The notes under the pieces were generated by a model that did no database searches, had not been told where the DNA came from, and saw nothing but the letters and a program-made list of their open reading frames with translations. Of a stretch of DNA of 64,000 bases, positions 1 to 45,311 are shown piece after piece (position 1 is the stretch's first letter; each line of letters starts with the position of its first letter). The position numbers and the translations under genes are program-made. Source of the stretch: Stegostoma tigrinum (taxonomy: Eukaryota); the NCBI RefSeq assembly GCF_030684315.1, contig NC_081387.1, positions 6,676,497 to 6,740,496 of the forward strand, read 5' to 3'.

Positions 1-164
1 TACCAGAAGCAGGAAGGTGGGCAGCCGCAGGCTGTCCCACTTGTACGTGACGTCCAACAGCAGCACCTCGGGATACCTCTCGAAGGTCTGCTTCATGCTG
101 CTATCCTGGAAGTAGATGGCCTGCAGCACGTTTGCCTTGCTGACCACCACAACCACAGTGGCAT
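1..164 (-). CDS. MULE-transposase-derived (ZSWIM3-like) gene, exon 5 (continues beyond window start); start of RNase H-like/MULE domain
   Basis: Acceptor ttacag|AT at 166/165. Translation (D)ATVVVVVSKANVLQAIYFQDSSMKQTFERYPEVLLLDVTYKWDSLRLPTFLLLV matches the MULE motif 'IFFQ..MK..F..FPEVL.iDaTYK'. Phase 1 matches the preceding exon. Confidence 0.9.
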
Positions 165-373
165 CTGTAACAAACAGCAGAGGCCGCAACATCAGACAGC
201 AGGAAGGAAGCACAGGATATTCAATCCATTGAGACAGACATGCGGGTTACTCAGCCCGTTGAGATTAACACACAAGTTGGTCAGCACAACCAGCTAGATA
301 CAGAGGCCATTTACCTGTCATAGAGTCATATAGCGAAGGGTGGGGAGTGGACTAAGATGGTGTGGTAGCAGTA

Positions 374-740
374 TGCTGTCCCTGGGCTGGGACAGTGTGG
401 AGCAGTGAGGGGTCAGTGAGAAAGCCTGTGCTGTCCCTGGGCTGGGACAGTGTGGAGCAGTGAGGGGTCAGTGAGAAAGCCTGTGCTGTCCCTGGGCTGG
501 GATAGTGTGGAGCAGAGAGGGGTCAGTGAGAAAGCACTGTGCTGTCCCTGGGCTGGGACAGTGTGGAGCAGTGAGGGGTCAGTGAGAAAGCACTGTGCTG
601 TCCCTGGGCTGGGACAGTGTGGAGCAGTGAGGGGTCAGTGAGAAAGCACTGTGCTGTCCCTGGGCTGGGAGTGTGGAGCAGTGAGGGGTCAGTGAGGAAG
701 CACTGTGCTGTCCCAGGGTTGGGACAATGTGGAGCAGTGT
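374..740 (+). repeat. 55-56 bp minisatellite, ~6.5 copies, in intron 4 of the MULE-derived gene
   Basis: tgctgtccctgggctgggacagtgtggagcagtgaggggtcagtgagaaagc(a)ctg recurs at 374, 429, 484, 540, 596, 652 and 706. Confidence 0.95.
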
Positions 741-783
741 GGATCCGCAATGGGGTGTGAGCATAAAGCACTTTAACACCTAC

Positions 784-982
784 CCTTGGCAGCTGCTAGT
801 GGGGGCACCATCTTTTCCAGGTCAGTCCGGTTTGTCTTGCACACACTCCATTTGTCTCTGCAGCTATCATCGCGGTGGATTCCCTGATCTGCTGTGACCC
901 CCAGGTTCTCCTTAATATCTGCTCTATTCCTCTGTACTGCACTGTCAAAGCGCCTTTGTCGTGGGAAGCGTTCCCTCTCAGC
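784..982 (-). CDS. MULE-derived gene, exon 4 (linker region)
   Basis: Acceptor tttcag|GCT, donor G|gtaggt. 199 nt open frame AERERFPRQRRFDSAVQRN...LAAAK. Phase 0 to phase 1 fits both neighbours. Confidence 0.85.
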
Positions 983-1804
983 CTGAAAGTTGGGAAAAGT
1001 TATAACTTTACTTCAATATTCCAAAAACAGTACTTGCATCCGTTCAATATAACACACTGCAGGAATATTACACAACGGAAAGTCACTGACAGTGCTAGAG
1101 GCGAAGAAAACCGTGAAAGCGGTATATTTTAAAGTAATCTCAAAGAGGAAAGCTAGACGCTGAGATGGTGGTGGGGCGGGGGAATTGTGACATTGGGTCT
1201 TATAGGACTTGGTGCTTTCATTAAAATTGGAGATCTTCCGCAGGTCACAATTAGTGGAGAGCAGACATATCGGAGGTTTGTGGGGCTGGTGAAGTTTGCA
1301 AAGGTCGGGAGGGTTTTTTTTTGTAAACGTATTATGTTTCAGAAAGTGGCGTGCTGTGTCACATGCAGAAATTTCATGGAAGGTACACCTGCAACTGTGC
1401 CTGAAGCTGACTAACCCGCGTGTCTGTCTCAATGGATTGAATATCCTGTGCTTCCTTCCTGTTGATGTGTGCTGGCATGAGGAAGGTACAAGTGCCAGTG
1501 ACCCTGTGTATCTGACTCTACACACAGGCAACTGCACATCTGTGTCCCTGCGGGTTGAACTGCGCACACTGCTAATTGTCTGTGCCCCTTGTATGTCGAG
1601 GTCTGTTAAGGAAGCCCTCTGCAGGGGTAACTGGGCAGTTGCGACCTTGTATGTCACTGACTGTGCGCTTGGAACTGCATCCCAGCACCCGTGGCAAGAA
1701 AACATGAAATGCAGGGTCCTCAAACTCTGTCAGCTGTTCATCTGGGACAACTTAAAATCTGTACCTGCGTGTCCAGGACTGCCCTGCATGTCCAGGATAC
1801 CCGC

Positions 1805-1985
1805 GTGTGTGTCACTAACAGCATGTCCAGTAGACCCGCCCCCCCACCCCGCCCACTCCCCACCCCACCCTACACCCACCCCCACCCCTTTGTGTGTCAG
1901 TAACTGCATGTCCAGTAGCCCCGCCACTGGGTGTGTCAGTAACTGCATGTTGGGGATCCCACATGTCAGTAACTGCACATCCAAA
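1805..1985 (+). repeat. Degenerate repeat gtgtgtcagtaactgcatgtcc with an embedded C-rich tract
   Basis: Motif at ~1805, 1891, 1930 and 1962. Poly-C/CCCCA tract at 1836-1888. Confidence 0.6.
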
Positions 1986-2024
1986 ATCCCCCAATGCACA
2001 TGTCCCTGCACACTTTGCACGTAC

Positions 2025-3080
2025 AGTCATTGAAACAGACCCTTCGGTCCAACTTGTCCAGGCTGACCAGATAACCTAAGTTAATCTAGGCCATTTGCCA
2101 GTATTTGGCCCATATCCTTCTAAACTGCTCCTATTCATACACTCAGTCAATGCCTTTTAAATGTCATAATTGTACCAGCCTCCACCACTTCCTCTGGCAG
2201 CTCATTCTATACTTACACCACCTTGTGTGTGAGAAAGTTGCTCCTTAGGTCCCTTTTAGATGTTTTCCCTCTCAACTTAAATCTGTGCCCTTTAGTTTTG
2301 GACTCCCCTATGCTGGGAAAAAGACCTTGGCTATTCACCCTATCAATGTCCCTCACGATTTTATGAACCCCCTACAGGGTTGGATGGGGAGGTGATGGCC
2401 TAGTGGTATTATCGCTGGGCTGTTAAGATCCAGGCAGGGGCCCAATCAAATGTTCTGGTGACCAGGGTTCAAATCCTGCCACGGCAGATGGTGGAATTTG
2501 AACTTAATAAATATCTGGACTTAACAGTCGAATGAAAACCACGAATCCTTTGTTGGGAAAAACCCATCTGGTTCACTTATGTCTTTTCGGGAAGGAAGCT
2601 GCCATTCTTGCCTGGTCTGGCCCATATGTAACTCCAAACCCACAGCAATGTGGTTGACTCTTAAGCCGCCCTGTGGGTAATTAGGGATGGGCAATAAATG
2701 TTGCCTGGTCAGCGACACCCTCACCCCATGAATGAGTAGACCAAAACAAAAACCCTCAGCCTCTGAAGCTCCAATGAAAATAGACACCGTTTTTCGTGCC
2801 TCCCTATAGCTCAAACCCTCTAACCCCAGCAACATCCTTGTAAATCTTTTTTGAACTCTTTCAAGTTTAACAACATCGTTCCTATTGGTGGGAGATCAGA
2901 ATTGAATCCAGGATCCCGAAAGTGGCCTAACCCATGTGTACAACCACAACATGATCTCCCAACTCTCACACAAGGCACTGACCAATAAAGGCAGGTGTGC
3001 CAGACACCTTCTTCACTATCCTGCCTACCTGCACTCCACCCTCAAGGAACTAGGTACCTGCACCTCTAGGTCTTTGCTCT
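2025..3080 (-). mobile_element. CR1-type LINE 3' fragment, interrupted by a SINE
   Basis: Minus strand encodes a degenerate CR1 ORF2 C-terminus (MLLGLEGLSYRE...) and the typical CR1 3' UTR. Confidence 0.8.
2385..2745 (+). mobile_element. tRNA-derived SINE (gatggcctagtgg... family)
   Basis: A-box tggcctagtgg and B-box gggttcaaatcc. Same body as the copies at ~44845-45195 and (minus) ~50480-50700. Confidence 0.75.
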
Positions 3081-3559
3081 CCACATCCACATCTAAGATG
3101 AAACTACTCTCAGCAAACGAGCAAAGCTCAAAATTCTAGTGATCCCACAAGCTTGCTGGAGAGCATCAGCTTCAACTATAAGCAACCCAGTATTCAACAT
3201 AACGACATCTTCAAGTTGAAAACCTGATTTGATGTTGAAACAAGAGGTGGTCTGACCCAATGCTGCAGACAGCACTTTTTAAAAAAAATAGCATATTCAA
3301 AAAGTGATCTAGTGTGGAAAGAGGACATTCAGCCCACTCTGCCTGTCACGGCTCTCTGAAAAAGATGCCCAATCAGTTCTACTCTTCCACTCATTCTCCA
3401 CAACCCTTCAAATCTCTACCTTCAAGTATTTATACAATTCTCTTTTGAACTGTATAACTGAATCTCCCAGTACCTTTTAAGCAGCACTTTCTCAGCTCAT
3501 AACAACTTGCTGTGCAAAAATAATTTCCATCTCCCCTTCTGATTAAATCTCTTGCCTCT

Positions 3560-3950
3560 CTCCCATGTCCCAGCCACGACCCCAAACACCAGGCCTTGTT
3601 ACCACATAGCTGCCATTACACACCTCCTGTTGTTAGTCACTAACAGTCCCCATTAAAAACCACTCACCCTCCCAGCCTGATCGTTAGCAGCTCCTTTGTC
3701 TGTTCAACTGTCTTTCTCTTTCTTTGGGCTCTATCCTACCGTTTACTCCCTACCCCACCCACCCCCCTATTTTCTGCATATAAACTGACGTTTTCTCAGC
3801 TACCATCAGTTCTGAAGAAGGGTCACCAGACCTGAAACATTAACTCCGTTTTCTCCTCCACAGGTGCTACCAGACCTGCTGAGCTTTTCCAGAAACTTTG
3901 TTTTTGTTCCTGATTTACAGCATCCCCAGTTCTTTTGGTTTTTATTTCGC
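3560..3950 (+). mobile_element. Penelope-like element 3' end (family with CTGAAGA hammerhead-like core)
   Basis: ctgaagaagggtcaccagacctgaaacattaact at 3812-3845, followed by the ...cagcatc...cagttct tail shared with 48265-48390; the core also recurs at 62520-62620. Confidence 0.65.
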
Positions 3951-4287
3951 AAACAATGAGATGTTGTTTCCAAAGTGGAAGGATCAGGAATCAGAGGAAG
4001 CTAATTTAATGTGATTGGTGACAGGAGCAATGGTGACATGAGGCAATGCTTTTACTCAGCAGGGGTTAAGACCTGGAATTCATTGCCTGAGAGTGCAGCC
4101 CAGGCAAACCGATTTATGATCTTCGAAAAGGGAATTTGTTCATCTTCTGAAAAGAAAAGAATTGGAAGGAAAAGGTGGTAGGGTCGGGACTGACGTGCTC
4201 TTGCAGAGAGCAAACAGAGTCCCAAAGTGTTAAATGGCCTCCTTCTGTGAATCTTCTCCAATCTGTCTACTTGACTTAAGTTAAAGA

Positions 4288-4599
4288 GGCACGGTGGCTG
4301 AGTAGTTAGCACTGCTGCCTCACAACACCAGGGACCTGGTTTGATTCCACCCTTGGGTGATTATCTGTGTGGAGTTTGCACCTTCTTCCCGTGGCTGTGT
4401 GGGCTTGATCCAGTTTCTTCCCTCAGTCCAAAGATACGCAGGTTATGTGGCTTACTAATGGTAAAATTGCCCATGGAGTCCGGGAATGTACACTAGCCAT
4501 GGGTAGTGCGAGATACAGGGATAGGGTAGGGTGGGATGCTCTTCAGTGTTGGTGACTCAATGGGCCGAATGGTCTGCTTCCACACTCTAGGGATTCTAC
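4288..4599 (+). mobile_element. HE1-type tRNA-derived shark SINE
   Basis: Head ggcacggtggctgagtagttagcactgctgcctcac, central tgtgtggagtttgca domain, CR1-like tail ending agggattcta. Confidence 0.8.
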
Positions 4600-4985
4600 G
4601 TAGCCCTTCATCCCTGGTGTGAATCCAGTCAATCTCTTCTGTGCCCACCACAATTCATGGCATCTTTCTTGGTGCCCAGGATTGAACATAATATTCCAGC
4701 TAAGGCCCGAATAGTGAATTAGAAACATTTAGTAGAACTTTATTTTTGTACACTTTCTGTATTTATGATGTCCACAATCTTGTGTACCTTTTTGAAACAG
4801 CCTTAACCTGGGAGAGGGACAGACAGAAACTAGGAGCTTTCCTGCTGCTCTGATGTTGATCGGCCTGCCGTGTTCATCCAGCTTCGCACCATGTTAACTT
4901 ATATTGAAGGGGATTACTGAATGTGCTTCAATGTTAGTGTCAGGATTTCCACACCGGCAGGAATCTGCTTGCTGGTTTTACTTAC

Positions 4986-5094
4986 CTCTTGTACTGTGTG
5001 GTTATGTGATTCAATCATCTCTTTCACCACAAACTTATCTCCATCCGGAGACAGGCGAACTTTAATAACGCAGGGACACTTGGTCTTGTTGGTT
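4986..5094 (-). CDS. MULE-derived gene, exon 3 (C-terminal half of the FAR1/WRKY-like zinc-binding domain)
   Basis: Acceptor ttgcag|A, donor GAG|gtaag. 109 nt encoding TNKTKCPCVIKVRLSPDGDKFVVKEMIESHNHTVQE (CP...HNH motif). Phase 2 to phase 0. Confidence 0.92.
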
Positions 5095-5399
5095 CTGCAA
5101 CAGACAATTGCAGCATTGTGTCAGGAGCTAGAGGGGGATTGCTTTTTGAATCTCCTTTCGCATCAGCATGTGGCACCAAAGAAAGATTATTAAATTCCTG
5201 TTTACAGCCCGCACAAGAGTCAAAAACTGAATAACAATATGGAATGCTCAGGAACTGCCAGTTTACATGTTTGCAATCCAGACTTATTCAAATATATAAG
5301 CATCTTTTTGTTAAAATTTTACCTCGAATGAACAGACTGTAGGTGGGCATGAGGTTTAAAAATGCTAATGTTGGTGAACACAGATAAGATTCCAGGTGA

Positions 5400-5895
5400 A
5401 GGAGGACTGGAGAGGGTTCAGACGAGATTTACCAGTTTGTTACCAGGAATAGAGCGTTTGAGCTATCAGGGCTGGCTGAGATATTGTTCCCTACAGCGTA
5501 GGAGGTTGAGGGGTGATCTTATAGATGTTTACAAAAATATGAGGGGCACACATACAATGAATGGCAAGTATCCTTTCCCGAAGGTGGGGGATTTCAAGAC
5601 TACTGGGTATATTTTTAAGGTGAGAGGGGGAAGTTTTTAAAAAAAAAAAGACACGAGGGGAAAGTTTTTTCTTTACACAGAGTGTGGTTTGCGTGTTGAA
5701 TGACCTTCCAGAGAAAGTGGTGGATGCAGGTAAAGTTACAGCACTCAAAAGACATTTGGATAAATACATGAATAAAGAATATTTGGAGGGATATGGGCCA
5801 AGCGCAGGCAGGTGGGATGAGTTTACTTTGGGATTATGGTCAGCATTGATTTGTTGGACTGAAAGGGCTGTTTCCATGCTGTGTGGCTCTATGCC
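5400..5895 (+). mobile_element. CR1 LINE 3' fragment
   Basis: LERVQTRFTSLLPG...RRRLRGDLIDVYK CR1 ORF2 tail plus 3' UTR. Confidence 0.85.
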
Positions 5896-6574
5896 TTCAG
5901 TAACGTGCCTACATTGCAAAAGCCAGGGTCTGAAGGAGCAGAGGAGATTCAGTGGGGGAGGTTGCAATTCATGAAGGATCTGTGTGAATGGATGGGAAGA
6001 AACTGTTTCTACTGGCTGAAGATTTGAGAATGAGATAGCACAGATTTACAATGATTGACCAAAGAATCAAAAGGGGACACAGGGTTAATCTTTTTGTTAT
6101 ATAGCAAGTGCTTAGGACACTGAATGCACTGCCCAAGAGTGAGGTCAAAGCTGACGTCATTGTGGTCTTTAAAAGAGGATTGGATAATTGAAGAGAACAT
6201 TTTTTGCGGGGCCACAAAGAAAGGGAGTTGGACTGGGTGAGTTACTCCCGCAGACAGCCAGCACAACCACAGCAAGCTAAAGAATCTCCTTCTATGTGAT
6301 AAACACCATACACTCTGCCAACAGGATCACGACCAAATAAAGTGTAGTATCTGTGCAGACATGGACACGATTTAGCTGGACAGCTAGAATCAGTTTATAC
6401 AGCCCTTTTCTGGACTTCTGAAAGCACTGTGTGGTTATTCTTCTTTGAAGCGTGGTCAGTTGTGTAATGTTGACATTGCCGACTTTTGGAGGTAGCTCCC
6501 TCAAATAGGAACGCAATAATGGCCATTATTTAGTTCAGCCGGGCTGGCTAGGGGATAACTTGTGCCCAGAAAAC

Positions 6575-6805
6575 TGGGGCTAATTCTCTCGCTTGTTGAA
6601 ATAATTGTGTTTTGCAACTATCTTGCAGGGCAATGGGGCCTCTGTTTCTCACCTTATCTAAAAGATGGAGCCTTCAACAGAGTAGCACACCTTTAGAAGG
6701 CTCTGGAGTTGAATTTTCAGCTAAGATTTTGGTCCATATCTCTGCAGTGGGGACTTAAACCCGTGAACTTCTGACTCAGAGGCGAACATACCATATACTG
6801 AACTA
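6575..6805 (-). mobile_element. Deu-domain (SacSINE1/AmnSINE1-like) SINE fragment
   Basis: Reverse complement resembles the Deu-type SINE at 51750-52740, with a tRNA-like head (gggtttaagtcccc). Confidence 0.5.
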
Positions 6806-7253
6806 ATGTCAACCTGCAACGGACATTTGGGTCCTCCATGTCTTGCATGGCTGTAAGTTAGCAGGTGGGTGGAAATGGACGTGGGTATTGCTTGTCGAGG
6901 TAAGGTAGAGAACAGTGTCACTTACTTCACTTACAGAACAAGACAGTACAGAGGAGGCCATTCAGCTCATTAAACCGGTACTTCTGATAGTTCTATCCAA
7001 TCAATTCCACTGCACAACTCCTTCCTCATGATCCCAAACTCTTTCTTTACTTTTAAATTGCTATCCATGTTCCTTTAGAAAGTGGCCAATTCTTTCTGCT
7101 TCCAGTGCCCTTCCAGGAAATCTAGCCCAAATTGGAACATATCGAAGTATTATAAACACTCCATATGGGCTCTGCTTTGGAATATGGGGTTACACAGTGA
7201 CAGCACGAGAACCAACTCAGACAGAGTGAGCCAACAGCCCCCGCACCCCTCAC

Positions 7254-7557
7254 CTTTGGTTTGTCCGCTTTCCGGTCCCTTTGGCCCTGAAGAGTTTGCC
7301 CCCGTGGATGCAAGCATAGTCGATCTCGGCAAACTTGAGTGCGTCGTTCATGGGCCGTTTGGGTGCCCTCCGCCTCTGGGCCTCGATGGTGCGAGAATGC
7401 CTGGTCCACAGCTGCACGGCACAGTCCCTCTGGTAGCGCCGGAACTCACGGTGCAGTTCGCTGTACGACGAGAATTCCGCACCCACTCGAAAGCCCACCG
7501 CCTGGGACATAACTGTACGTCTCCCACAACTGGGACGACCCAAGTGGGGAGTAGGAC
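7254..7557 (-). CDS. MULE-derived gene, exon 2 (ZSWIM3-N/FAR1-like DNA-binding domain, N-terminal half)
   Basis: Acceptor ttcacag|GT, donor AG|gtgag. 304 nt open frame: ...FRVGAEFSSYSELHREFRRYQRDCAVQLWTRHSRTIEAQRRRAPKRPMNDALKFAEIDYACIHGGKLFRAKGTGKRTNQR. Confidence 0.92.
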
Positions 7558-10169
7558 CTGTGAAGAAAACACATGGGGCAACAGGTCAGGGACCAGAACC
7601 CTGGAAAATGTGGGTGTGCAGGGGAAAGCGTTGGGGGGGTGTGTGCTCTGTGACGGACCTCTGGGCTGTACGTGTTAACTCCATACCCCATATGCCTCCA
7701 AAGTCATCCAATCGTAGTGGGTTTTCAGGCCAGCTGAGATGCTGACCCTTGGCAACAGGCAAGAGATTAGCAACCCTCTTAAATTGTTCTGATGTCTCAT
7801 TGAAGATTCACCTCAAGAAAACAACAGCAGTGAAAGTGTAAGCAGGAGGATGTACAGCATAATTGTGGGGTTTTGAAAATGATTCTCCTTGTTACTCATT
7901 ACTGATAGAAACTGAAGTGTGTGAGAAGTTACCTGGGGTAACTAGGACTGTGGGGTCATTAGATCACCCTGATCCAAATGAGTGGCACAGCACGGTCAGG
8001 GGGCCAAGTGCCTCATTGCTGCTTTTAAAGTATTTGGTTACATGACCAACAGCAAGGGCCTGGGCTGATGAAAGACAGGCAGAAATGAGGCAAAACCTCC
8101 GGTAACAACTGTACACAAACAGGGCCTTGAATGTTCCTGCTTTGACTATGCTCTATCTTGGTTACTCTCAGGGTTGCTAATGTTGAAGGTGGAGTTTCAA
8201 ATCGCTTGGGACTATCTAAAAACTGTTTACGCATAGTTTTAGGATCCAAATGCCAACCAATAGCTCCAAACAATGGATGCACAGCTAGGCTGAGGAGACA
8301 GCGACATGAAACAAGTTACCTTATCAACGTAGCAGCTGCAAGTAGGTTTGGTTGGTCTTTCAGGCAGTCAGTGGCCTTTGCCACATAATTCAACAGCCAT
8401 CAGCGCTAAAGATGCACCAAGTGAGATTTCTGTTGAAAAACAGTGGGAAGCATTAAAGATCCATTTGTACTATGGAGTGAAGTTTACACTGAATTACATC
8501 AGGCCTGCAGCACAGGAAGAAGCCGTGGATGATACCACTAGGATATCTCCTCCTGATGCCACATGCTAACCTCTCCCTGGTGTAAAGAGGTTTCTTTTGA
8601 GCACCCAGTTGGATTTCTTGCTGATTATTTAATGGCCCCTAGTTTTGGACTCCACCACTTCCCAACCCACCTCCCAACATACCCCCTTCCAGTAGACACA
8701 TCCGCTGATTGATGAAGCAGGTATATCCTAAATTCAGACATTAGTTGATCAGAATTACCCCAACAAGAGGCTGGAAAGGTTTCAGCACTGGCTGCAAAGC
8801 CTGCAAAAAGTTCCAGTCCTGACTCATATGAAGAAATCTCTCCGTCTATGTATAAATGGTGGCTCTGGGAGAATGGCTGAATTCAAAGCATAGCAACAGG
8901 CCATTCCCAATCGGTCCATGCCAATGCTCATGGGATTTACCAGCCAGCATATCAGTTCATTCCTTTCCCACCCACATCTCATTAACTGGTAATGTTAGGA
9001 CGTGATATAACTAATTTGTCACTTGGGAAACAAAGTTATAGTGTCACAGAGCATAGAAACAAGCCCTTTGGCCCATCATATCTATGTCAATCAGCAAACA
9101 TTGAACTATACTAATCTCATTTCCCTGCACTTAGTCTGTAGCCTACACATTGGCTCAGTTCTAAGATTTCCTCAGGTGTAGAATCTAGTCCCACAGAAAC
9201 AGACTATTTGTTCCTTCAGGCATGTAGAGTCCCTGGAAAGTGCTGTCCCATGTAGTCCAATGCTCCAGCTTCTTTCCACCTCCGTCTTCTCTGCTTAAAA
9301 GCTGGTCTAGCCAACTGGTCATCCTCAAGGAATCTGAGTTTCTCTGGCAAAACACACTTTCCACAGGCATGTTGTACACTGCAGCTATGAACGCTAATAA
9401 TAGAGGCTTCAATATTCTTCTATCACATGGCTGACCAGGAATCTCTCCAACTCTTAAACTCCTACCATCGGCCTTTGTAACAGGCATTTGCAGGTTGATA
9501 TTCAACCTGCTTGGCCACATTATGAATTTTTCTTGGCCATCAGGTCCTGGCCTGGCCCTAAAATTGAGTTTCTAGTTCCAAAGAAGGGATGCTACTCACC
9601 GCCCCACAAGACTTCCTCTTTTTCCATTGCAATTCAGCTAATTATTTTTCTTTAAGTACGTGTCCCACTGCCTTTAGAACTCCTTGCAGTATCTGCTACC
9701 ATCACACCTGCAGTTAGGACATTTCAGATCTCAGCAAACTTCTCTTGTCATCCATATCCCATTTTCTCTTAGTAATTTACGAACTACTTTCAAGCTAGGA
9801 CCTCCAGTTACTAGTCCACTTAACAGAAGGAATTGTTTCTCCTGTTTTGCTCTGTGCAAATACCTCAGAATTCTGATTGTCTCCATCAAGTCTCTGCTTA
9901 AATCTATCTATTTAAGGAGAGCGTACAAATCAGGAACAAGCCATTCAGCTCCAATGATAAATTTGTGAATGATGTGCTTCCGGCTTTGCTTCAACTCTCC
10001 TGTCTACCCCATACTTGTTAATTAAACATCATCTAACTTGGCCTTACAAATATTTAATGACTCAGCCTCCTCTGCACTCTGCGGAAGACAACTGCACAGA
10101 ACAACGACCCTCTGAGTTAAATATTTAAATAAGTAAATAAATATTTCACCTCATTTCTGTATTAAATAA

Positions 10170-10520
10170 AGTGTATAAAATCATGGAGGCTATAGATAAG
10201 CGAATGGCATACATCTTTTCCCTAGGCTGGAGGATTTCCAGACCCTGAAGCCTATTTTTAAGGTGAAAGGAGAAAGATTTAAAAAAGACATGGGGGCAAT
10301 TTTTTTAAACAGAGTGTGGTTCACGTGTGGAATTAACTGCTGGAGGAACTGGTGGATGTGGGTACAGCAACAATATTTAAAAGACTTTTAGATAAGTTAA
10401 TGAATAAGAAAGGTGTAAGGGATATGGGGCAGCAGCAGGCAGGTGGGACTGGTTTAGTTTTGGATTACAGTTGGCAGGGACTTGTTGGACCAAACAGTCC
10501 ATTTCCATTTTGATGACTCT
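10170..10520 (+). mobile_element. CR1 LINE 3' fragment
   Basis: Near-identical to the CR1 tails at 5520-5895, 11005-11370 and 46150-46470. Confidence 0.8.
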
Positions 10521-11004
10521 ATCCCTAATTTTTAAACTGTGTCCCTTCGTTCTACTTCTCAAAAGGAGAACATTCCCTGAGTAACTACATCGTCAATTTC
10601 CCTCAGGATGTTACGTGTTTCAATAAAATCTCTTCTCATACTGCGCAACTCCGAGAGGGCAGAAGAGAACTAGCTTCTCCATTATCTCCACACAACTCAT
10701 GCCCCCATTTTTGCATCATCCTTGGAAATCTCTTGTCTGCCCATTTGATCACATTGCTATCCTTTGTAAAGTACAGCTCCCAAAACTGCACACAACGACA
10801 AGACAATTTGCATTGACGTGCATTTACAAAACAAAAAATACGTCAAAGATGGGGGCCTCAGGAACTGTGACTTGGAGGAAAAAGAATACTAGAGCTGGTA
10901 AAATTAGATGGGGTTTATTTGAAAACAATTTGCATTCATAAAGCACCTTCAATGCAGTTAGTTATCCTCAAGACATTTTTCACTGGAGCTTGGGAGATTG
11001 ACAG

Positions 11005-11370
11005 GTGACCTTATAAAGGTTGAGAAAACCATGAGGGGTATAGGTTAAGTGAATGACAGGGAAAAGTGGGATATTTCGAGACTTGGGGGCATATTTTTAA
11101 GGTGACAGAAGAAAGGTTTTAAAAAGACATGAGGGGCAATTTTTTTACACAAAGTGTGGTTTGAGTGTGCAATGAACTTCCAGAGGAAGTGCTGGATGCA
11201 GACACAACTACAATGTTTAAAAGACATTTAGATAAGTACATGAATAAGAAATATTTGGAGGGATATGGGCATGTGCAGCCAGGTGGGGCTAGTTTATTTT
11301 GGGATTGTGATCAGCATGGATTGGTTAGATTGTAGGGTCTATTTCTGTGCTGTATGACTCTATGACTATT
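11005..11370 (+). mobile_element. CR1 LINE 3' fragment
   Basis: CR1 3' end with a ctatgactctatgacta tail. Confidence 0.8.
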
Positions 11371-11759
11371 AGTGCTTCAGGAATTCAAATCTGCCAAATA
11401 AGGAGAGATTAGGTCAGGTAACTAAAAGCTTAGACAAAGGGGAAGACTTGAAGTGTCATCTTAGAGGAGGAGTAAGACACGTTTTGGATGGAATTCAAGG
11501 TATTTACAGCCTTGTCAGCTAAAGCATGTCCCACTATGGGGAAAGTGATTAAAGGTCGAGGGTGTGGTTAAAGCCACAAATAACAACTCAGATATTGCTA
11601 GGATAGAGCATTAAAAGGATGGAGAGAGGCCATGGATGGGTCTCAAAACAAAGATGAGAATTTAAAAATCAAAGCATTGCTTAACCAAAATTGAAGGATG
11701 GGATGGCAAGCAAAGGGATGATAGGGGAACATAACTTGGTGCAAGGGTTAAAGAGGCGT

Positions 11760-12050
11760 AGAAATGCACAGCACAGAAACAGACTCTTCATTCCAACCCG
11801 TCCATTCTGGCCAAATATTCCAAATTAATCTAGTCCCATTTACCAACATTTGGCCCACATCACTCTAAAGCCTTCCTATTCATGTACTCATCCAGATGCC
11901 TTTTAAATGTTGTAATTATACCAGCCTCCACCACTTCCTCTGGCAGTTCATGCCATATATGCGTGAAAAAGTTGCTTCTTAGGTTCCTTTTAAATTTTTC
12001 CCCTCTCAGCATCAACCTATGCTCTCTAGCATTGGACTCGGTTACCCTGA
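11760..12050 (-). mobile_element. CR1 LINE 3' fragment
   Basis: Homologous to 2025-2310. Confidence 0.75.
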
Positions 12051-12203
12051 GATGTTCTGAAGTTTATGAAGGGTGGAATGAGGGAGGCCGGCCGGGGTAA
12101 CACTGCATAAGAAACAACGAATGTGTAAAGAAGTGTAAAGGATATTAGCATTTGTTGCAAATCAGTTGACTCTTAACTGCTTTCCAAACTCAATCGCAGG
12201 TTA

Positions 12204-12284
12204 ATAAAATGTGAGGCTGGATGAACACAGCAGGGCAAGCAGCATCTCAGGAGCACAAAAGCTGACGTTTCGGGCCTAGACCCT
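12204..12284 (-). mobile_element. Short Penelope-end fragment flanked by a 10-bp direct repeat
   Basis: Reverse complement of 17587-17668. tcgcaggtta at 12194-12203 and 12285-12294. Confidence 0.8.
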
Positions 12285-13879
12285 TCGCAGGTTACCCAGT
12301 TCTGGGCACTTTAGGTCAAATGTTGTACTTGCCAGCAATGCACACAGCCCTTGAAAAAGAATTGAACAGAAAATTGTAATTATGTTACTGGACTAGCAAT
12401 ATGTCCTGTTTTCACATTAAGCACACCTTTCCACTGTGTTGTGGAGCACTAACACCATGCCAAATCATCCAGAGCACTAATGACACTCAAAACAGGGAAT
12501 CCATGAGGTATGGTGGACCATCAGCAGCATTACAATTATATTCAACACTCTGCAACCTCATGACCCAACAGAACCCACAGTCACGCATTACACTATTATG
12601 AGAAACTCCTGCAGTCATGTCCTGTGGCTGGATGAATTGGACTTCAACATTTTCCACCTTTGTGCTTGGCATGACTCTCTACTTTTTCCTTCTGATTCCT
12701 ACTGATGTCAGCAAAGACATTTTTAACTAACCTGTTCAGAAATGTTATAGGGCACATCAGGTGGGATTGAACCCAGGCTTCATGGTTCAGAAGTAGGGAC
12801 ACTATTACAGCGCCACAACAGCCCTAAGCATTCACATCAGGTTAAGCCTTGTTGCAAGGCAGAAGTCAAACCACATTGGAGTACTGTGGGAAGTTCTGAT
12901 CTCATTACCTAAAGGAGGGATATTGATTTTCTTATCAACCCACTCAGAGAGATGTTATTACAAAATTCTGGAGCAGGTGTAAGTTGGATCAGGCCTCCCG
13001 GCTCAGAGGCAGAGACACTACCGTTGCGCCACAGCACCCTAAGTACTGATATCAGGGTAGCGTCCAAGGTCAAACCATTTTCAGCCACTTCATTAATGAC
13101 TCCCAAAGCCTGTTCATCATCTGCAGAGACAAGTCAGGAGTGTGATAGAACATTCCCCAATTGTTTGAATGACTGCAGCTCCGGGAACACTCAAAAAGCT
13201 CAGCAACATTCAGCACAAAACTGCCTCCTTGATTGGCACCCCATCCATTATCTTCGACATTCAGTGTCTTTATCATTGATGCACGATGACAGCAACGTAT
13301 ACCATCTACAGAATGCACCGCAGCAAGACTTGTTCAAAAGCATTTTCGAAACGACAGCATCACATCCTTGAAAGGATAAGTGCAATAAATGCACAGGACA
13401 TGCTTCAAGCCTCAAACCATCCTGATTTGAACAATATCATTGTTTCTTTAAACTTCTAATATACCCTTCTACATTTCCTCACATTTCTCCAGCTGCTGCG
13501 CTGACCTCCAGGTCTCTGCCAGCTGCAGTTGCAGAAACTGTAAATGAGTGAGTAGGGGTTTACAAGTGTGGACTCCTTCCCCTCGGCACTGTCCGTACAT
13601 CTGCACTCCAAGGATGGGGTGGGGTGGGCGCTTACCACTAACTTATGAAGGGCAATCACAGACAGACAGTAAGTACTGGTATTGCCATCAGTACCCCTAT
13701 CCACTCCCCAGGGTCATCAGAATAAAAGCCCTCATTTCTGTGTCAGCTCTTTGCTAAAGTTATTCAGGAACCTCACTCCCCTTCTCATTATACATAACCT
13801 TTCAATTCTTTCCTTCCCAAGTATTTATTTCACTCTCTTTTGAAAGTTATAACTGAATGTACTTTGAAATCCCTCTAGT

Positions 13880-14520
13880 ATTGGGATGGAATGGAAGTCT
13901 CTGGGATTGTGAAAGGAAAGAGGCAAACATCTGGAATCGGGAAACTTTTGGGAAGAGGTAGGGACAATCTCGAGAAATGGGAGAGGCAGAGTGGAGCATT
14001 TCTGTTATTGGAAGGCAGGGTACAATCTGTAGATTTTGGATTAGGGAAATCCTTGGAACCTGGATCAGGAGAAATCTATGTGTTTAGAACCAGGAGGAAT
14101 AGCTGTGATTGTAATCAGGAGCAAACGCTGGAACTGCGATCAGGAAAATTCTTTGGGATTGGGTTTGGGATGGATTTGGATCAGGAGGGATCTCTGGTTA
14201 GGATCGAGATGGAATTGGGATCCGGATGGTACTCCGATCAGGAGGGACCTCCGGGATTGAAATCAGGAACGAATTGCAGATTATGAGAGACATCTGAAGT
14301 TGGTCTCAGGAGGAGATGGGATTGGGATCAGGAATGTTCACCGTGTTGAGCAAGGATCTGTGCTTTTAAAACCAGAAGGGATCTGGGATTAGGAGGGATC
14401 CTGTGGATTAGAATCAGGAAGAATCCAAAGGATTGCGATCAGGAGGAATCTAAGGGATTGTGGTCAAGGCGGGTCCGGGATTGGGATATGAACAGATCCC
14501 TGGGTTTGGGACTGTCTGTT
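13880..14520 (+). repeat. Degenerate purine-rich repeat (gggatctgggattgggatcaggag-like) in intron 1 of the MULE-derived gene
   Basis: Many gatcaggag / gggatt / gggatc motifs and strong G+A strand bias. Confidence 0.7.
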
Positions 14521-15110
14521 TTCCGGATGCGGGCAGCCTCTGCGCTCCGAGGCGGGAGATGAGCCGCCGCCTCTTTACCCGGCCCCAAGAGCTGACGGCG
14601 GGTCTGTTAGCGGATCCGCCTTCCACCTGATCGGCCAGCCCGCCTACCCAACTACTTACCGCCCTTGGGCTCTCTTTCTTCCATATGGGGTCTGGGGGGA
14701 GGCCTCCCGCTCCCCAGCAATAATTTAAACACCCTCCACCACTGCCGGCCGCCGGCACCTCCCACGCATGCGCTATTCGTTACCGCCAGCCGCCGGCATC
14801 TCTCGCACATGCGCCCTTCCCCACTTTCGGCCACCGGCGCCACAAACGCATGCGCTCGCGTCCACTGCCGGCTCATTGCACTTCCCGCACATGCGCCTTC
14901 CGTCAACCCATGCAGACGGTTCCTTGCGCACATGCGTTCTAGTATACTACCGGCCGCCGGCATCTCCCGCGTTTGCGCACTGTTCATCTCCGCCCGAGGA
15001 GGAGGCGGTTTCAACGGCGCGGCCACTTCTGGGACATCAAGCCGCCATGACTGAGGCATCACCACCGTCTTCAGCGCCACAGAATTAGCAGACACTACGG
15101 CGCTGGGAGT
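14520..15110. promoter_or_regulatory. CpG-island promoter with six 41-bp-spaced NRF1-like motifs
   Basis: High CpG density. CATGCG core starts at 14767, 14808, 14849, 14890 and 14931, with degenerate TTTGCG at 14972. Confidence 0.85.
14660..14684 (-). CDS. MULE-derived gene, probable exon 1 coding part (MEEREPKG)
   Basis: ATG at 14684 and strong donor G|gtaagt at 14660/14659. Phase 1 joins exon 2 in frame (G+GT). Lies in a CpG island. Confidence 0.7.
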
Positions 15111-16080
15111 AAACAAAAATTGTTGGAGGTAACTGTCTGAAGTTCATTTCCTAGATTTCAAACACAAAAAGGAAAATGAGTCGGCTCTTGTAGCATATGA
15201 ACTCGCGGGGTCTCATGTACCAAAGCGTGGAAGCAGAAGAGTTGACAAGATATAAACGGACCGAATGGCGCCTGCTGTACTGCAGAGACTCAGCGAAGCA
15301 GTCCTAAGCCAGATGGTGTGTGACTCGGAATTGTTCTTCTTCGCCATGCATCTGCTGATCCTAACCTTTTGGGTTGTCTATATCCTCATCAGTCTAAGTT
15401 CTATTACTCTTCGTTTCATTCAGCTATATCCACCTGAGTTTCTACCTGTACCTCTGTATTTCTGTTACCCCGTTTTATTAAGCTATCACTATGTGAGTTT
15501 CTGTCCATACTTCTGTCTCAAAACAACTTTCGCTCTCTGTTAAAGCTTTCTTACATTTTTTTTTCAAAATGCTACTTTTCATTATGTGAGCATTTGTCCG
15601 CATTTGTTGCTCATTGCCTATTGCCCTTGAAATGAGGATAGTGAGTAATCTTCTTGAACGGAAACAATCCATACCATGTGGACACACACATACTGCTATC
15701 GGGAAGGAAATTCCAGCACTTTGATTGTACATAGTGAAGAAAAAAGCAATGTACTTCCAAGTCATGATAAAGGGAATGCAGTGTTTCAATGCACTTCTTT
15801 CCCGATTTTTACGAGTATGTTGGACCAAATGGACGAAGGGTCAGGAAGCGAACATTAAGGAGACAGTAATCATTGCAAAGTGTTCATTTGGCATCTCAAC
15901 CACATCCCCGACTTAATGCAAGACTTGTCTTTTAGGACTATAATCCGCATGATTCCTCTTTTATTATCCCTTTACGTCAGTTGCGAGTTCCTCTTTCATT
16001 ACTTCTCTTATTTGATGTTTTTCAATTCCCCTTTGCACCTTCTGTATTGAACTCGTGCTTAAGTGTATTATCTACCTGAC

Positions 16081-17712
16081 ATATGCCTGCCTCTTTGTAG
16101 GTTACGTGGAACAGTCCATCTTCCGCACCTACACAGGCCCCAAACCCCACCTCTTCCTCCGGTACATTGATGACTGTATCGGCGCCGCCTCTTGCTCCCC
16201 AGAGGAGCTCGAACAGTTCATCCACTTCACCAACACCTTCCACCCCAACCTTCAGTTCACCTGGGCCATCTCCAGCACATCCCTCACCTTCCTGGACCTC
16301 TCAGTCTCCATCTCAGGCAACCAGCTTGTAACTGATGTCCATTTCAAGCCCACCGACTCCCACAGCTACCTAGAATACACCTCCTCCCACCCACCCTCCT
16401 GCAAAAATTCCATCCCCTATTCCCAATTCCTCCGCCTCCGCCGCATCTGCTCCCACGATAAGACATTCCACTCCCGCACATCCCAGATGTCCAAGTTCTT
16501 TAAGGACCGCAACTTCCCCCCCACGGTGATTGAGAACGCCCTTGACCGCGTCTCCCGCATTTCCCGCGACACATCCCTCACACCCCGCCCCCGCCACAAC
16601 CGCCCCAAGAGGATCCCCCTCGTTCTCACACACCACCCTACCAACCTCCGGATACAACGCATTATCCTCCGACACTTCCGCCATTTACAATCCGACCCCA
16701 CCACCCAAGACATTTTTCCATCCCCACCCCTGTCTGCTTTCCGGAGAGACCACTCTCTCCGTGACTCCCTTGTTCGCTCCACACTGCCCTCCAACCCCAC
16801 CACACCCGGCACCTTCCCCTGCAACCGCAGGAAATGCTACACTCGTCCCCACACCTCCTCCCTCACCCCCATCCCAGGCCCCAAGATGACATTCCACATT
16901 AAGCAGAGGTTCACCTGCACATCTGCCAATGTGGTATACTGCATCCACTGTACCCGGTGCGGCTTTCTCTACATTGGGGAAACCAAGCGGAGGCTTGGGG
17001 ACCGCTTTGCAGAACACCTCCGCTCAGTTCGCAACAAACAACTGCACCTCCCAGTCGCAAACCATTTCCACTCCCCCTCCCATTCTCTTGATGACATGTC
17101 CATCATGGGCCTCCTGCACTGCCACAATGATGCCACCCGAAGGTTGCAGGAACAGCAACTCATATTCCGCCTGGGAACCCTGCAGCCATATGGTATCAAT
17201 GTGGACTTCACCAGTTTCAAAATCTCCCCTTCCCCCACTGCATCCCTAAACCAGCCCAGTTCATCCCCTCCCCCCACTGCACCACACAACCAGCCCAGCT
17301 CTTCCCCCCCACCCACTACATCCCAAAACCAGTCCAACCTGTCTCTGCCTCCCTAACCGGTTCTTCCTCTCACCCATCCCTTCCTCCCACCCCTAGCCGC
17401 ACCCCCAGCTACCTACTAACCTCATCCCACCTCCTTGACCTGTCCGTCTTCCCTGGACTGACCTATCCCCTCCCTACCTCCCCACCTACACCCTCTCCAC
17501 CTATCTTCTTTACTCTCCATCTTCGGTCCGCCTCCCCCTCTCTCCCTATTTATTCCAGTTCCCTCCCCCCATCCCCCTCTCTGATGAAGGGTCTAGGCCC
17601 GAAACGTCAGCTTTTGTGCTCCTGAGATGCTGCTTGGCCTGCTGTGTTCATCCAGCCTCACATTTTATTATCTTGGAATCTCCAGCATCTGCAGTTCCCA
17701 TTATCTCTGATA
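16081..17712 (+). mobile_element. Young 5'-truncated Penelope-like retroelement (RT C-terminal half + GIY-YIG endonuclease)
   Basis: Uninterrupted ORF (track 16055-17356): YACLFVG, RYIDD, FLD, KPTDSHSYL, CxxxxC, and NVVYCIHC...LYIGETKRRLGDRFAEH. C-rich 3' UTR and terminal repeat. Confidence 0.92.
17581..17608 (+). ncRNA. Minimal hammerhead ribozyme motif in the Penelope terminal repeat
   Basis: CUGAUGA-A-GGGU(CUAG)GCCC-GAAA-C-GUC: intact core, helix II, palindromic ACGU helix III and a GUC cleavage triplet. Helix I is weak. Confidence 0.7.
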
Positions 17713-18171
17713 TTTTATATGCACCTTTTTTTCAGCTTCAGCTTACCTTCTATCCATTTCAACATTCAGGGAGATTTAGTTTTGTTTGCTCCACCTTATC
17801 TCCTCCCGTGAATTTACATTAACTGTATCCAAACACTGGCTTGCTTTTGAAGGCAGCTCATTGTCCAATGACAGTTTTACCTGGCAGTCTTTGATTCCAG
17901 CTCATGTGGATCAAATTTGTTCTCAACTCACGGAAGTTGTCCTTCCCCTAATTACATTCTTATTCTGAATTGTTCCTTGTCATTTTCAGTAGCCAATCAA
18001 TTTTTCATTGCAATGATCACTGTCCCCTTAAGGTTTCCTCCATTTGGTCCGTCATAATATCAAAAAAAAACAGATTTTCACACATTGGAAACACAGAACA
18101 TTCTCCTCACCATACACTGAGAATTCTTTCCCCTCCCAGCTCTTTAAACTATTATTAACTCAGTCTACATT

Positions 18172-18487
18172 GGCAGCACGGTGGCTCGGTGGTTAGCACT
18201 GCAGCCTCACAGCGCCAGGGACCCGGGTTCAATTCCCACCTCAGGCAACTGTCTCTGCAGAGTTTGCAAGTTCTTCCCGTGTCTGTGTGGGTTTCCTCCA
18301 GGTGCTCCGGTTTCCTTCCACAGTCCAAAGATGTCCAGGTTAGGTGGATTGGCCATGCTAAATTACCCATAGTGTTCAGGGGTGTGTGGCTTATAGGGGG
18401 ATGGGTCTGGGTGGGATGCTTCAAGGGGCAGTGTGGATTTGTTGTTCCGAAGGGCCTGTTTCCACACTGTAGGGAATCTATTCTATG
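18172..18487 (+). mobile_element. HE1-type tRNA-derived shark SINE (well preserved)
   Basis: ggcagcacggtggctcggtggttagcactgc...gggttcaattccc (A/B boxes), V-like central domain, CR1-type tail. Confidence 0.88.
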
Positions 18488-18943
18488 CTAGAATCATTAA
18501 ATTTCACTATTATAGCTGCTCTATAGGTTTTTCATTTCTCTGAACAAATTTATTCCTTTATAGCTTTCCCATTAGGTGATAGCCTACAGAATATACAAGC
18601 AATTTCATAGAATGCCTATTGTTGCTTAGCTCCAGCAAAATTGTGTAATCAGAGAGAAACTACTTCTGCGTGTTTCTTATCTGGAGAGATGATTTGTTTC
18701 ATTCATTTTCACACTGTGCAGAGTAATGTGCCTGGAAATCCTGCGCACTCCCCTCTTGGAAACAGACATATCTCTTTATCTTCACCACTCTTTTTGCCTT
18801 CCTCTTCCTACCCTCTGTCCAGGTACATGTTTAAATGGGATTGATCTAATCACTCACTTCTAGATATAAACTGTGTGAGCGTTTGGATTAAGTACTCACC
18901 TTTCTCTCAATCTTTTCAGTTCCTGCAGGACACAGAGTCAGAA

Positions 18944-19333
18944 GCAATTTTAGAAATATGTAGTGCTGTTCAGATTACTCATCATTAAATAATACACTTA
19001 ATGCTTTTAGTAAAATATGAATGGATTTATATGGAGTTTTCACTGAAGATATAAGCGATAGCATTTCAATTACTACATCCACAGCTTCCCTTCCCTCCAA
19101 CATATTCAAACAAGATTCCTCCACTGCTGAATCCCTTGAAGCTTTGCTGATCAGTTAATTTTATTTCTGGTTTCTATTTTATGAGTAACATAGAGCCTGC
19201 CTCTGTGGATCTAAGCTGGTGACAGTGATGTTGCATCTAACCCCATATAAATCCATGCATATTTTACTAAAAACGTTAAGTGTATTATTTAAAAATGAGT
19301 AATCTGAACAGCACTACATATTTCTAAATTCGC
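18944..19333. repeat. ~95-bp inverted repeat with a 200-bp spacer
   Basis: 18944-19038 is the reverse complement of 19239-19333 with a handful of mismatches. Confidence 0.9.
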
Positions 19334-38762: not shown

Positions 38763-39422
38763 TCCAATAATAACATCAGCTGGGATCATCCGTACCAACC
38801 TGTGGTGTAGAATCATGCAAGTGGAATTTTTTAACATGACTGTATGGTTTCCATTGCAAGAGAAGACAGGAAATCCTGGTTTCTGTATCCCTCACTGTCA
38901 ATATAAGTAATCCAAATCCCACCCTATGTTTGTTTTAATGATGGCTAGTTTCTGCTCTCACTGAGAGTTCAGACATTTCCATCAGAGCCCTTGAACTATC
39001 TCAGTTTCACTGAAAAGAATCTCCATCTGCCCTCCTTGCTCAGGCCCACCATGCTCAGGAATGACCTGGCCAAAAAATCCATCACTTGCTTTCTGTCACC
39101 TTGATATCCTCCTTAACAAGGTACAAAATGATCAAATATTCAAACTATGCTCTTTGGAAATCTTTATAAGAATGTTGTGGAGTAGATTTAACGTGGACTT
39201 AAACTGATTCTTAAATAGGAAGGAACACACACGAGGCAGGGTTTAGACAGGAAAATGGAATCAAGTCATGATGTTATTGATTAGGAGGCAGTTGGAGGAG
39301 CAACCTGGCTTATTCCTGCTTTTATTTCTTATATTCAAGTTGAACATCAATGTGTGCCATACTCTCAGTTATTTTACAATCAATGATGTTTATAAGACTG
39401 TTTCCTCTTTGTAATCCTTCAG

Positions 39423-39683
39423 ATTTTCACGTCCTCACATTTTACTACTTACTGAACCTTGGCCAGGCTGAACTGCCTGAGTACAGTTTGTTGGCGATGC
39501 TAGATGACTACCACATAATTTATTTCGACAGCACACTGGAGTTGTGCGTACCCAGACAACACTGGTTGGCACAATCCTTCCCAAAGGATCACTGGGTCAT
39601 GATGACTATCACAATGGCGGGATTACACGGTCTTGTGAAAGGAAACATTGAGATATTTTATCAACAACACCATGGAGGTTCTG
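39423..39683 (+). CDS. Non-classical MHC class I gene, alpha1 exon
   Basis: ccttcag|AT ... TCT G|gtaggt, 261 nt, phase 1-1. DFHVLTFYY...LPEYSLLAMLDD...YFDS...VPRQHWL...HW has the class I alpha1 landmarks (H3, D29, FDS, PR..W, W60). Confidence 0.92.
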
Positions 39684-40124
39684 GTAGGTGTTTTCACAAC
39701 AATGGCAAAGTAACTAATTTGTATTGGGACAGTGTCATAGTAACATCCTGAACTGTTTCACGCATGGTACAAGACATGGAATTAGCTGGATGAAGTCACT
39801 TTCTGGGAATAATGCAGAAGACATTAGTGCACAGCAAAATTGGTGAGGTGATTCACTTGCTTTTGCATGTGTACAAGAAGTGAAAACACCAGCATCTCAG
39901 TAGCCTGATTGAACAGGGAGAAACTTGTTTTAAATAATCTATATGATGGCATTTTTGACAAGGCAGCATTCTGTATTGCCTTTCAGACAGTGAAGTTCTC
40001 TTCAGTAATCCACCTCGAAAAGTGCAACACTCATTCAGTTCTTTACTGTAATTCTGAAATTGCAGCACTCCTGAGCATTGTTCATTTCACAATATAGTAT
40101 TCCATCACTACTGATCTACAGACA

Positions 40125-40330
40125 GTGCAGCACTCCCTCAGTTCTAATCTTCTGTCAGAGCAGCACAGCTTCAGTTCTAATCTTCTGTCAGAGCAGCACA
40201 GCTTCAGTTCTAATCCTCTGTCAGTGCAGCACTTACTCAGCACATTTAGCCTGATAGTGCAGTTCTCTCTCAGTGCTGATGCTCCAAGGGGCAGTACCCA
40301 TCAGGACTGACCTGCTGATGATGCAGTGCT
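40125..40330 (+). repeat. 33-bp tandem repeat, ~6 decaying copies
   Basis: cagttctaat(c)...gtcagagcagcac at 40139, 40172 and 40205, then degenerate copies. Confidence 0.85.
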
Positions 40331-45195: not shown

Positions 45196-45311
45196 ATGTC
45201 TGAACTAAAAGGTGAAGGGCCTGGCAATTCTGCTGTGTAAATTTGGAGAGAGCAAACCACGTTGGTGACTTTTTTTTATCAGTGATTTGAGTCTTTGGTT
45301 AACTCTCTCAG

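Follow-up and report, generated by a model that had tools for sequence, protein, structure and literature searches.

A host gene of sharks and rays derived from a Mutator transposase and lying in the MHC class I cluster of Stegostoma tigrinum

The evidence gathered here supports a gene of Stegostoma tigrinum, lying partly within the 64,000-nucleotide stretch of DNA that was analysed (the window), as a real domesticated Mutator transposase retained by sharks and rays. Its domestication had been proposed from the letters of the window and held up on closer analysis, since the gene is single-copy here, has orthologs in 15 named elasmobranch species (8 sharks and 7 batoids), is represented by a spliced RNA contig in a relative and carries a broken catalytic triad. 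With moderate confidence, it is read as an elasmobranch host gene of Mutator-like element (MULE) origin that has lost the second catalytic Asp, was recruited probably independently of ZSWIM1/3/9 and likely encodes a nuclear, sequence-specific DNA-binding regulator acting through its zinc finger. A literature search found no paper on this gene, and to our knowledge only a handful of Mutator domestications are known in vertebrates, and these have received little study.

The five minus-strand segments put forward by the sequence-only reading are present at their claimed sizes, all four introns between them are of the GT-AG type, and the joined 801 nt give 267 codons without a stop, in which both CIHGGKLFRAKGTGKR and LLLDVTYK are found. 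Recovery of the 3' exons from the flanking DNA brought the gene to six coding exons and a 672-aa product, identical letter for letter to database protein P0180, with a span of 33 kb including the putative first exon (Table 1). Two of the five segments had to be reinterpreted: the 164-nt segment is not a whole exon but the first part of one of 436 nt, and the 25-nt exon 1, present together with its donor, is of doubtful coding role and probably belongs to the 5' UTR because P0180 and the orthologs begin at the ATG of exon 2. Another model, with six exons and 682 aa counted from the upstream ATG, read on past the donor of exon 6 and was dropped in favour of exon 7.

Table 1. Features of the gene and its surroundings (window positions unless prefixed with the contig, C44)
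Feature	Position	Strand	Remarks
Putative exon 1 (3' part), 25 nt	14660-14684	-	GTAAGT donor; in-frame upstream ATG
Exon 2, 304 nt	7254-7557	-	Start ATG 7510; aa 1-86; first half of C-C-H-H (FAR1/ZSWIM3_N-type) zinc finger
Exon 3, 109 nt	4986-5094	-	aa 86-122; second half of zinc finger (C92, H116, H118)
Exon 4, 199 nt	784-982	-	aa 123-189; fast-evolving linker, low model confidence
Exon 5, 5' part, 164 nt	1-164	-	Full exon 436 nt = G000:C44:6676225-6676660; RNase H-like core with D226, second Asp lost (S289), CxxH (C310, H313)
Exon 6 (outside window)	C44:6662264-6663207		W376, E403, SWIM C510/C512/C522/H524
Exon 7, coding part (outside window)	C44:6658160-6658233		
CpG island	14500-15100	.	Likely promoter
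MHC class I-like neighbour, divergent	39344-45694	+	Open frames and profile matches: 39344-39748 (weak MHC_I), 41607-41957 (MHC_I), 45269-45694 (C1-set)

None of the sequencing runs with matching sequence was recorded as RNA, and five were guessed to be RNA. A contig of run X1, from a relative and of guessed RNA type, joins exons 2, 3 and 4 at the predicted sites, its record 1 holding 110 letters between exons 2 and 4 and setting the exon 2 boundary at 7254. Spliced sequence thus exists for these junctions. No RNA evidence was found for the junction of exons 1 and 2: two of the four runs show a small depth across 14414-14900, which does not count as evidence for it. Twelve exon differences were listed, nine of them synonymous, and all three replacements fall in the linker. 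Composition bears out the CpG island, whose GC content is 0.64 and whose CpG o/e of 0.98 compares with 0.28 across the window. The island likely serves as the promoter of the gene; TATAAA is absent from 14685-15100. Six degenerate 41-bp units, each with a GCGCATGCG-like core, lie within the island at about 14754-14999, and they were not reported by Tandem Repeats Finder.

Pfam matches to the product comprise ZSWIM3_N (60.7 bits), MULE (46.1 bits against a cut-off of 27.6), the ZSWIM1/3 RNase H-like domain and FAR1, which narrowly exceeds its cut-off (28.2 bits against 28.1) and falls below it when exon 3 is taken by itself. The zinc finger residues C67, C92, H116 and H118 are present in 12/12 full-length elasmobranch rows, the RNase H-like core with its CxxH and a helical insertion is indicated by profile, predicted model and structural match alike, and the SWIM finger (CxCxnCxH; C510, C512, C522 and H524) persists in all 14 elasmobranch rows, its Pfam score of 13.3 lying under the cut-off of 19.6. 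The predicted fold is matched best by the transposase of ISCth4 (E 1.6e-7), which we take to belong with the IS256/Mutator kin. That likeness is one of predicted fold (PDB 6xgx, 6xg8, 6xgw), ISCth4 being an active bacterial transposase of 11-14% identity to the shark protein, and a search of solved structures by sequence gave 0 matches. Animal MULE transposases of the ZSWIM1/3-like clade, namely sea spider Nymphon P0015/P0017, teleost P0018/P0019 and limpet P0026 (~30-33% identity), share the shark domain order of C-C-H-H finger, RNase H-like core with CxxH, helical insertion, SWIM finger and C-terminal helices. These transposases are mostly D-D-E-intact (106 of the 131 alignable outside relatives) and some bear a C-terminal PHD, whereas the shark gene has neither the second Asp nor a PHD, and its orthologs make up a single conserved group. 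Amphioxus, a tunicate, a sea star and a knifefish showed apparent parallel domestications in the same search.

The elasmobranch orthologs form one clade (support 100/100) on a long stem, and the skates hold duplicated copies of the gene. In each of the 11 orthologs compared, the zinc-finger region (77-100% identical) is more conserved than the linker (44-94%). An ortholog from a chimaera or a bony vertebrate was not among the 12, 16 and 4 matches of three word searches; since chimaera assemblies have been described as data-deficient (PMC10751288), a lack of the gene in chimaeras is not thereby established.

It is hardly credible that the gene is a still-active recombinase or a young transposon. 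The first Asp, noted by the sequence-only reading and indeed retained in this shark, is kept in 10/13 elasmobranch rows and the Glu in 7/14, and the CxxH is kept; yet the second Asp is replaced in 14/14 rows covering the site, so that retention of the first does not imply activity. The triad reads D-S-E in sharks and D-S-Q or G-G-Q in batoids, which have additionally exchanged E for Q, with a further D to G in skates. The near-identical copies expected of an active MULE were not seen, exon 2, exon 6 and ZSWIM3_N each giving one genome match, and no inverted-repeat pair brackets the exons among 25 of the 27 pairs in window 1-20000, a range outside which the 3' end of the gene lies. The gene might also have been retained to defend the host against the transposon family from which it came, by occupying terminal repeats or by poisoning the oligomers of active transposase, instead of regulating host genes. 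The full transposase body (insertion domain, CxxH, W376 and SWIM finger) is preserved at full length with catalysis lost, which is just what a dominant-negative partner would retain. We nevertheless consider such a guard role quite improbable, as the RNase H family search of the genome adds just two weaker MULE fragments, a minimum number, on other contigs, leaving no active target evident, and a near-invariant zinc finger across sharks and rays is easier to reconcile with host targets that stay the same than with an arms race.

A weightier alternative, though still an unlikely one, makes the gene the shark ortholog or co-ortholog of ZSWIM1/3 or ZSWIM9, arising from a single jawed-vertebrate domestication that was later moved, slow to evolve in sharks and lost in zebrafish. 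ZSWIM1/3/9 are themselves of MULE ancestry, and their tetrapod forms have in common with the shark gene an identical domain order, the Pfam models ZSWIM3_N and ZSWIM1-3_RNaseH-like and the SWIM motif. NCBI names the gene automatically 'ZSWIM1-like' or 'ZSWIM3-like', but such names are not discriminating because the same names are applied to arthropod proteins and free transposases score equal or higher on the ZSWIM-named models (128 bits for sea spider P0015 against 102 for the whale shark ortholog); 'ZSWIM1-like' is probably misleading. The PF21600 ZSWIM1-3_helical cut-off (27.3 bits) was reached by none of five elasmobranch proteins (best 17.2), against its presence in 100% of the chordate ZSWIM1 cluster. 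Of the DUF5575 models, which we take to represent ZSWIM9, the core was missed by all five (19.3 against a cut-off of 24) and DUF5575_C also fell short (20.4 against 24.5), whereas DUF5575_N was passed marginally (27.4 against 24.1), as it was by the DDE-intact relative P0042 (25.1). A chordate DUF5575 cluster ranked second by language-model features in the atlas (0.96), which together with DUF5575_N speaks for orthology, and slow shark evolution could hold a true ortholog nearer to free transposases than its tetrapod counterpart.

Gene order argues against that orthology. In human, ZSWIM3/1 lie between ACOT8 and NEURL2 (PMC3635907). The corresponding shark block is on contig C23, not on the MHC contig, and does not hold the gene: no open frame exceeds 186 aa in the ACOT8-NEURL2 interval, and no MULE-like frame occurs in 200 kb of the block, the positive control recovering four exons of this gene. 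Peptidase_S10 matches, candidates for CTSA, lie on C19, C23, C2 and C26, none of them beside the NEURL2-type gene in the 200 kb read. LIG1, a neighbour of ZSWIM9, was not located, the ligase search giving only one long single-frame match, on C6. Genome profile searches with PF17738, PF21600 and PF00969 gave no match; with no other ZSWIM1/3/9 found in the shark genome, the gene could be their stand-in. Such blank searches are weak evidence, however, because MHC class II beta genes, which are expected in a shark, were missed and only one DNA ligase was found. The parts of PMC10236294 consulted place ZSWIM1/3/9 in group I, report zebrafish to lack them and ZSWIM1 to be intronless (the shark gene has five coding introns), and tie only the SWIM domain of ZSWIM to MuDR.

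Recruitment independent of tetrapod ZSWIM1/3/9 is therefore judged probable, with fairly good confidence. The sequence-only claim of distinctness stands in that the family cut-offs were failed, the human ZSWIM3/1 slot is empty in the shark and free transposases, mostly DDE-intact, are the nearest non-elasmobranch relatives; the support is indirect because the trees, built from the elasmobranch clade and non-elasmobranch relatives, contained no ZSWIM1/3/9 sequence, none identified as ZSWIM1/3 having come up in the searches. None of the 22 looked-up non-elasmobranch representatives of the top 150 (14 named, 8 without a species name) is a tetrapod protein. IQ-TREE (36 of 132 rows) gave no supported sister group for the shark clade, and a FastTree grouping with teleost and sea-spider transposases was unsupported in it.

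How an independently recruited transposase might have become a regulator can be outlined. In the elasmobranch ancestor, a MULE would have inserted into the MHC region, shed its ends and its catalytic function, then come under the control of a CpG-island promoter and been retained for its ability to bind DNA. Through its N-terminal zinc finger, which is highly conserved, the protein likely acts as a DNA-binding regulator. The RNase H/insertion domain, no longer catalytic, would together with the SWIM finger form a platform on which oligomers or partners assemble, on the pattern of plant FHY3/FAR1, and the most likely targets would be genomic copies of the ancestral terminal-repeat motif. According to the sections of PMC8616336 consulted, FHY3/FAR1 and MUSTANG are host genes that arose from MULE transposases and retain both the MULE domain and the SWIM finger, and FHY3/FAR1 work as transcription factors; these belong to a separate kingdom and to separate events, and the role in the shark is putative.

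The sequence-only reading placed the gene next to an MHC class I gene. The neighbour is real, but the description understates the setting: the gene sits inside a class I cluster, on the contig that carries all 36 MHC class I matches. In the portion consulted of the MHC paper's supplement, where the white shark and catshark sheets have no product names, 'SWIM' is absent, and an ortholog may appear there with nothing but a LOC number as its name. The gene seems to be a resident so far missing from the elasmobranch MHC map, and its location offers a speculative but testable link to immune gene control. A long shot is that it encodes an elasmobranch-specific transcription factor, domesticated from Mutator in the MHC before the shark-ray split, that regulates nearby nonclassical class I/TRIM genes via transposon-derived sites; if true, an adaptive-immunity locus would have recruited a transposase for a second time, independently of both RAG and ZSWIM1/3/9. 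A separate shark-ray event, taken with the apparent parallel cases, suggests that this transposase clade has been recruited repeatedly, and would help to date ZSWIM1/3/9.

The existence of a gene domesticated from a Mutator transposase, as put forward by the sequence-only reading, was upheld by a single genomic match, an elasmobranch clade, a spliced contig and a broken catalytic triad. All five segments joined in that reading were found in the expected places of the minus strand with GT-AG introns, and together they give the claimed 267 codons without a stop, but the 164-nt last segment turned out to be just part of exon 5 when 59 kb of flank was added to the window (G000:C44:6676497-6740496). 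Examination of this flank also recovered the 3' exons sought in adjacent DNA: the large exon 6 lies 13,017 nt beyond exon 5, with a donor near its end spotted from orthologs, and exon 7, likewise found via orthologs, has a 74-nt coding part 4,030 nt past exon 6. The model begun at the exon-2 ATG comprises 672 aa and is identical to database protein P0180; a gene prediction therefore exists in databases already. As 10 of 12 aligned orthologs begin at the equivalent Met (one of the others starts two residues longer and one has a duplicated N-terminal domain), the 25-nt exon 1, earlier counted as coding, is probably untranslated.

Features of the MULE-derived gene, its product and the syntenic block on contig C23
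Feature	Location	Strand	Basis or reading
Exon 1 (putative), 25 nt	window 14660-14684	-	sequence
Exon 2, start ATG at 7510	window 7254-7557	-	sequence, database protein
Exon 3	window 4986-5094	-	sequence
Exon 4	window 784-982	-	sequence
Exon 5, window part	window 1-164	-	exon total 436 nt with flank
C-C-H-H finger	residues 1-120 (C67, C92, H116, H118)		
Linker	between finger and RNase H-like core		
RNase H-like core	D226; CxxH at 310-313		
Helical insertion	W376, E403		
SWIM motif	C510, C512, C522, H524		
C-terminal helices	after SWIM motif		
Neuralized-domain gene	C23:51.682 Mb		read as NEURL2
4HBT_3 match, sole one in genome search	C23:51.692 Mb		read as ACOT8
PX-TPR exon	C23:51.713 Mb		read as SNX21

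The CpG island proved to be real (GC 0.64, CpG o/e 0.98 vs 0.28). Within it, window 14754-14999 holds six degenerate 41-bp units, each with a GCGCATGCG-like core that resembles the NRF1 site; the five exact pattern matches of this core, at 41-bp spacing, make up the entire whole-window rate of 0.08 per kb. Intron 4 carries a 56-bp minisatellite (window 367-739; 6.7 copies, 95% matches), and a 59-nt inverted pair on either side of exon 4 (window 197-255 and 1406-1464, 95% complementary) could affect its splicing. Two extra copies of exon 7, one with a different upstream flank, are found downstream at about 6657.0 kb and 6640.5 kb of G000:C44 (L003/L004 and L005), and belong to a local duplication also taking in TRIM-like sequence.

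The genome gave one match each for exon 2, exon 6 and the ZSWIM3_N model, in agreement with the single-copy status to be verified, all such match counts for exons and family models being lower bounds. The RNase H model detected two further, weaker fragments on contigs C3 and C35; an internal stop interrupts one of them. These MULE-type fragments (L009:1444-1878 and L010:1372-1683) displayed no sequence-level kinship to the gene in exon searches. Presence across sharks and rays was confirmed by orthologs in 15 named species (eight sharks and seven batoids), which come out as a single clade in a 132-sequence tree of the core (131 of 165 proteins past the coverage filter plus the studied gene, without any ZSWIM1/3/9 sequence). 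When IQ-TREE was applied to 36 of the 132, support for this clade was 100/100; carpet sharks grouped together, as did batoids. For 11 orthologs compared with P0180, identity ranges over 77-100% (finger), 63-99% (core) and 44-94% (linker). Run X1 of a relative, guessed to be RNA, yielded a 516-nt contig that covers window 784-981 and 7254-7456 with 110 letters between; together with a same-depth contig in which a difference falls within exon 3, it shows exons 2-3-4 joined as predicted. Among the 12 exon differences listed, nine are synonymous and the three replacements all lie in the linker. Skates break the strict single-copy rule with duplicates and isoforms carrying two zinc fingers; the skate records P0011, P0190, P0191, P0193, P0013, P0014 and P0059 show tandem or partial duplicates, two-finger isoforms and a replacement of the first catalytic Asp by Gly.

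The whale shark ortholog was modelled with AlphaFold2 from a 111-row alignment. Mean pLDDT was 85.1, most of the linker scored under 50, and the top five PDB matches of the model were ISCth4 transposase chains (best E 1.6e-7). The SWIM cysteines and histidine persist, but the D-D-E triad does not: the second Asp is missing in 14/14 elasmobranch rows that cover it, the triad being D-S-E in seven rows (six of them named sharks), whereas three batoids show D-S-Q and skates G-G-Q. D-D-E is intact in 106 of the 131 alignable outside relatives (of 150). Going by this comparison, catalysis appears to have been lost.

Judged from indirect tests, the domestication is likely to be separate from that of ZSWIM1/3/9. 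When 1.84 billion representatives were searched by profile with no word filter, the next-ranked relatives after the elasmobranch proteins were mostly DDE-intact transposases, and tetrapods were absent from the 22 non-elasmobranch representatives looked up (14 carrying species names, including a sea spider, three teleosts, amphioxus, a priapulid, a limpet, a sea star, two insects and a tunicate). The gene could instead be a ZSWIM1/3/9 ortholog, as slow evolution in sharks could produce the same relatedness pattern; no supported sister group of the elasmobranch clade emerged from the IQ-TREE run, and a chordate DUF5575 cluster ranks second in the atlas. Weighing against orthology, the cut-off of PF21600, which is carried by 100% of the atlas chordate ZSWIM1 cluster, was missed by 5/5 elasmobranch proteins, as was that of the DUF5575 core; DUF5575_N was passed marginally by three of the five. 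Automatic ZSWIM names are not diagnostic because free transposases score equally or higher on ZSWIM-named Pfam models, and the name given to this gene by the databases is probably misleading.

The accessible text of PMC10236294 lists ZSWIM1/3/9 for human, mouse and Xenopus, reports none from zebrafish and describes ZSWIM1 as intronless; the human order is SNX21, ACOT8, ZSWIM3, ZSWIM1, C20orf165, NEURL2, CTSA (PMC3635907, available portion). From domains and order, the trio on contig C23 is read as NEURL2, ACOT8 and SNX21. A profile built without elasmobranch rows, which recovers four exons of the studied gene as a positive control (E 7e-10 to 9e-75), gave no hit better than E 0.18 when run against the 5,046 open frames from 200 kb of this region, which also argues against orthology, although real genes can escape genome searches. 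The longest of 825 open frames in the NEURL2-SNX21 interval has 186 aa. Set against the human arrangement, shark NEURL2 appears to be inverted with respect to ACOT8. Beside NEURL2 lies a cluster of long frames (L014-L022, G000:C23:51.59-51.67 Mb), two being HSP20/alpha-crystallin domains; further frames of 452 and 1107 aa look like this pair.

The adjacency to MHC class I also held: contig C44 carries every one of the genome's 36 MHC_I matches, and 22 of these fall at 5.5-7.1 Mb, flanking the studied gene on either side. According to the available part of PMC10751288, elasmobranch class I genes map to the MHC only, and in its table for the MHC chromosome of the catshark the last position is 163,380,576; the catshark ortholog lies on a sequence of 163,470,629 bases, a likeness in length which suggests that MHC linkage is conserved there. 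The ortholog was not identified in the sawfish table of the same accessible part. TRIM genes occur on either side, at window 52872-53351 (+) with RING and B-box by Pfam, and downstream (L005, L006:4312-4866 and L007:8201-8668) as PRY-SPRY-like and coiled-coil frames recognised by eye. Two near-identical open frames of about 440 aa (window 16016-17353, +; L006:5990-7297, -) resemble, by eye, part of a young Penelope-like retroelement, namely its reverse-transcriptase end and GIY-YIG-type endonuclease. Location in the MHC alone is no demonstration of an immune role.

The product is most likely a nuclear DNA-binding regulator, as predicted from the best conservation being in the finger, the apparent loss of catalysis and the plant precedent of FHY3/FAR1, host regulators from a MULE transposase (PMC8616336, accessible text). 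A guard against the parent element would rank second, and residual recombinase activity is unlikely. P0020, P0035, P0067 and P0073, from amphioxus (two related records), sea star, knifefish and tunicate, fall in the same transposase clade with altered catalytic motifs and may be further domestications. No paper on the studied gene was found in the literature covered, most subscription journals lying outside it. Domesticated MULE transposases are already known as a kind, of which this elasmobranch gene is a new, probably independent member.
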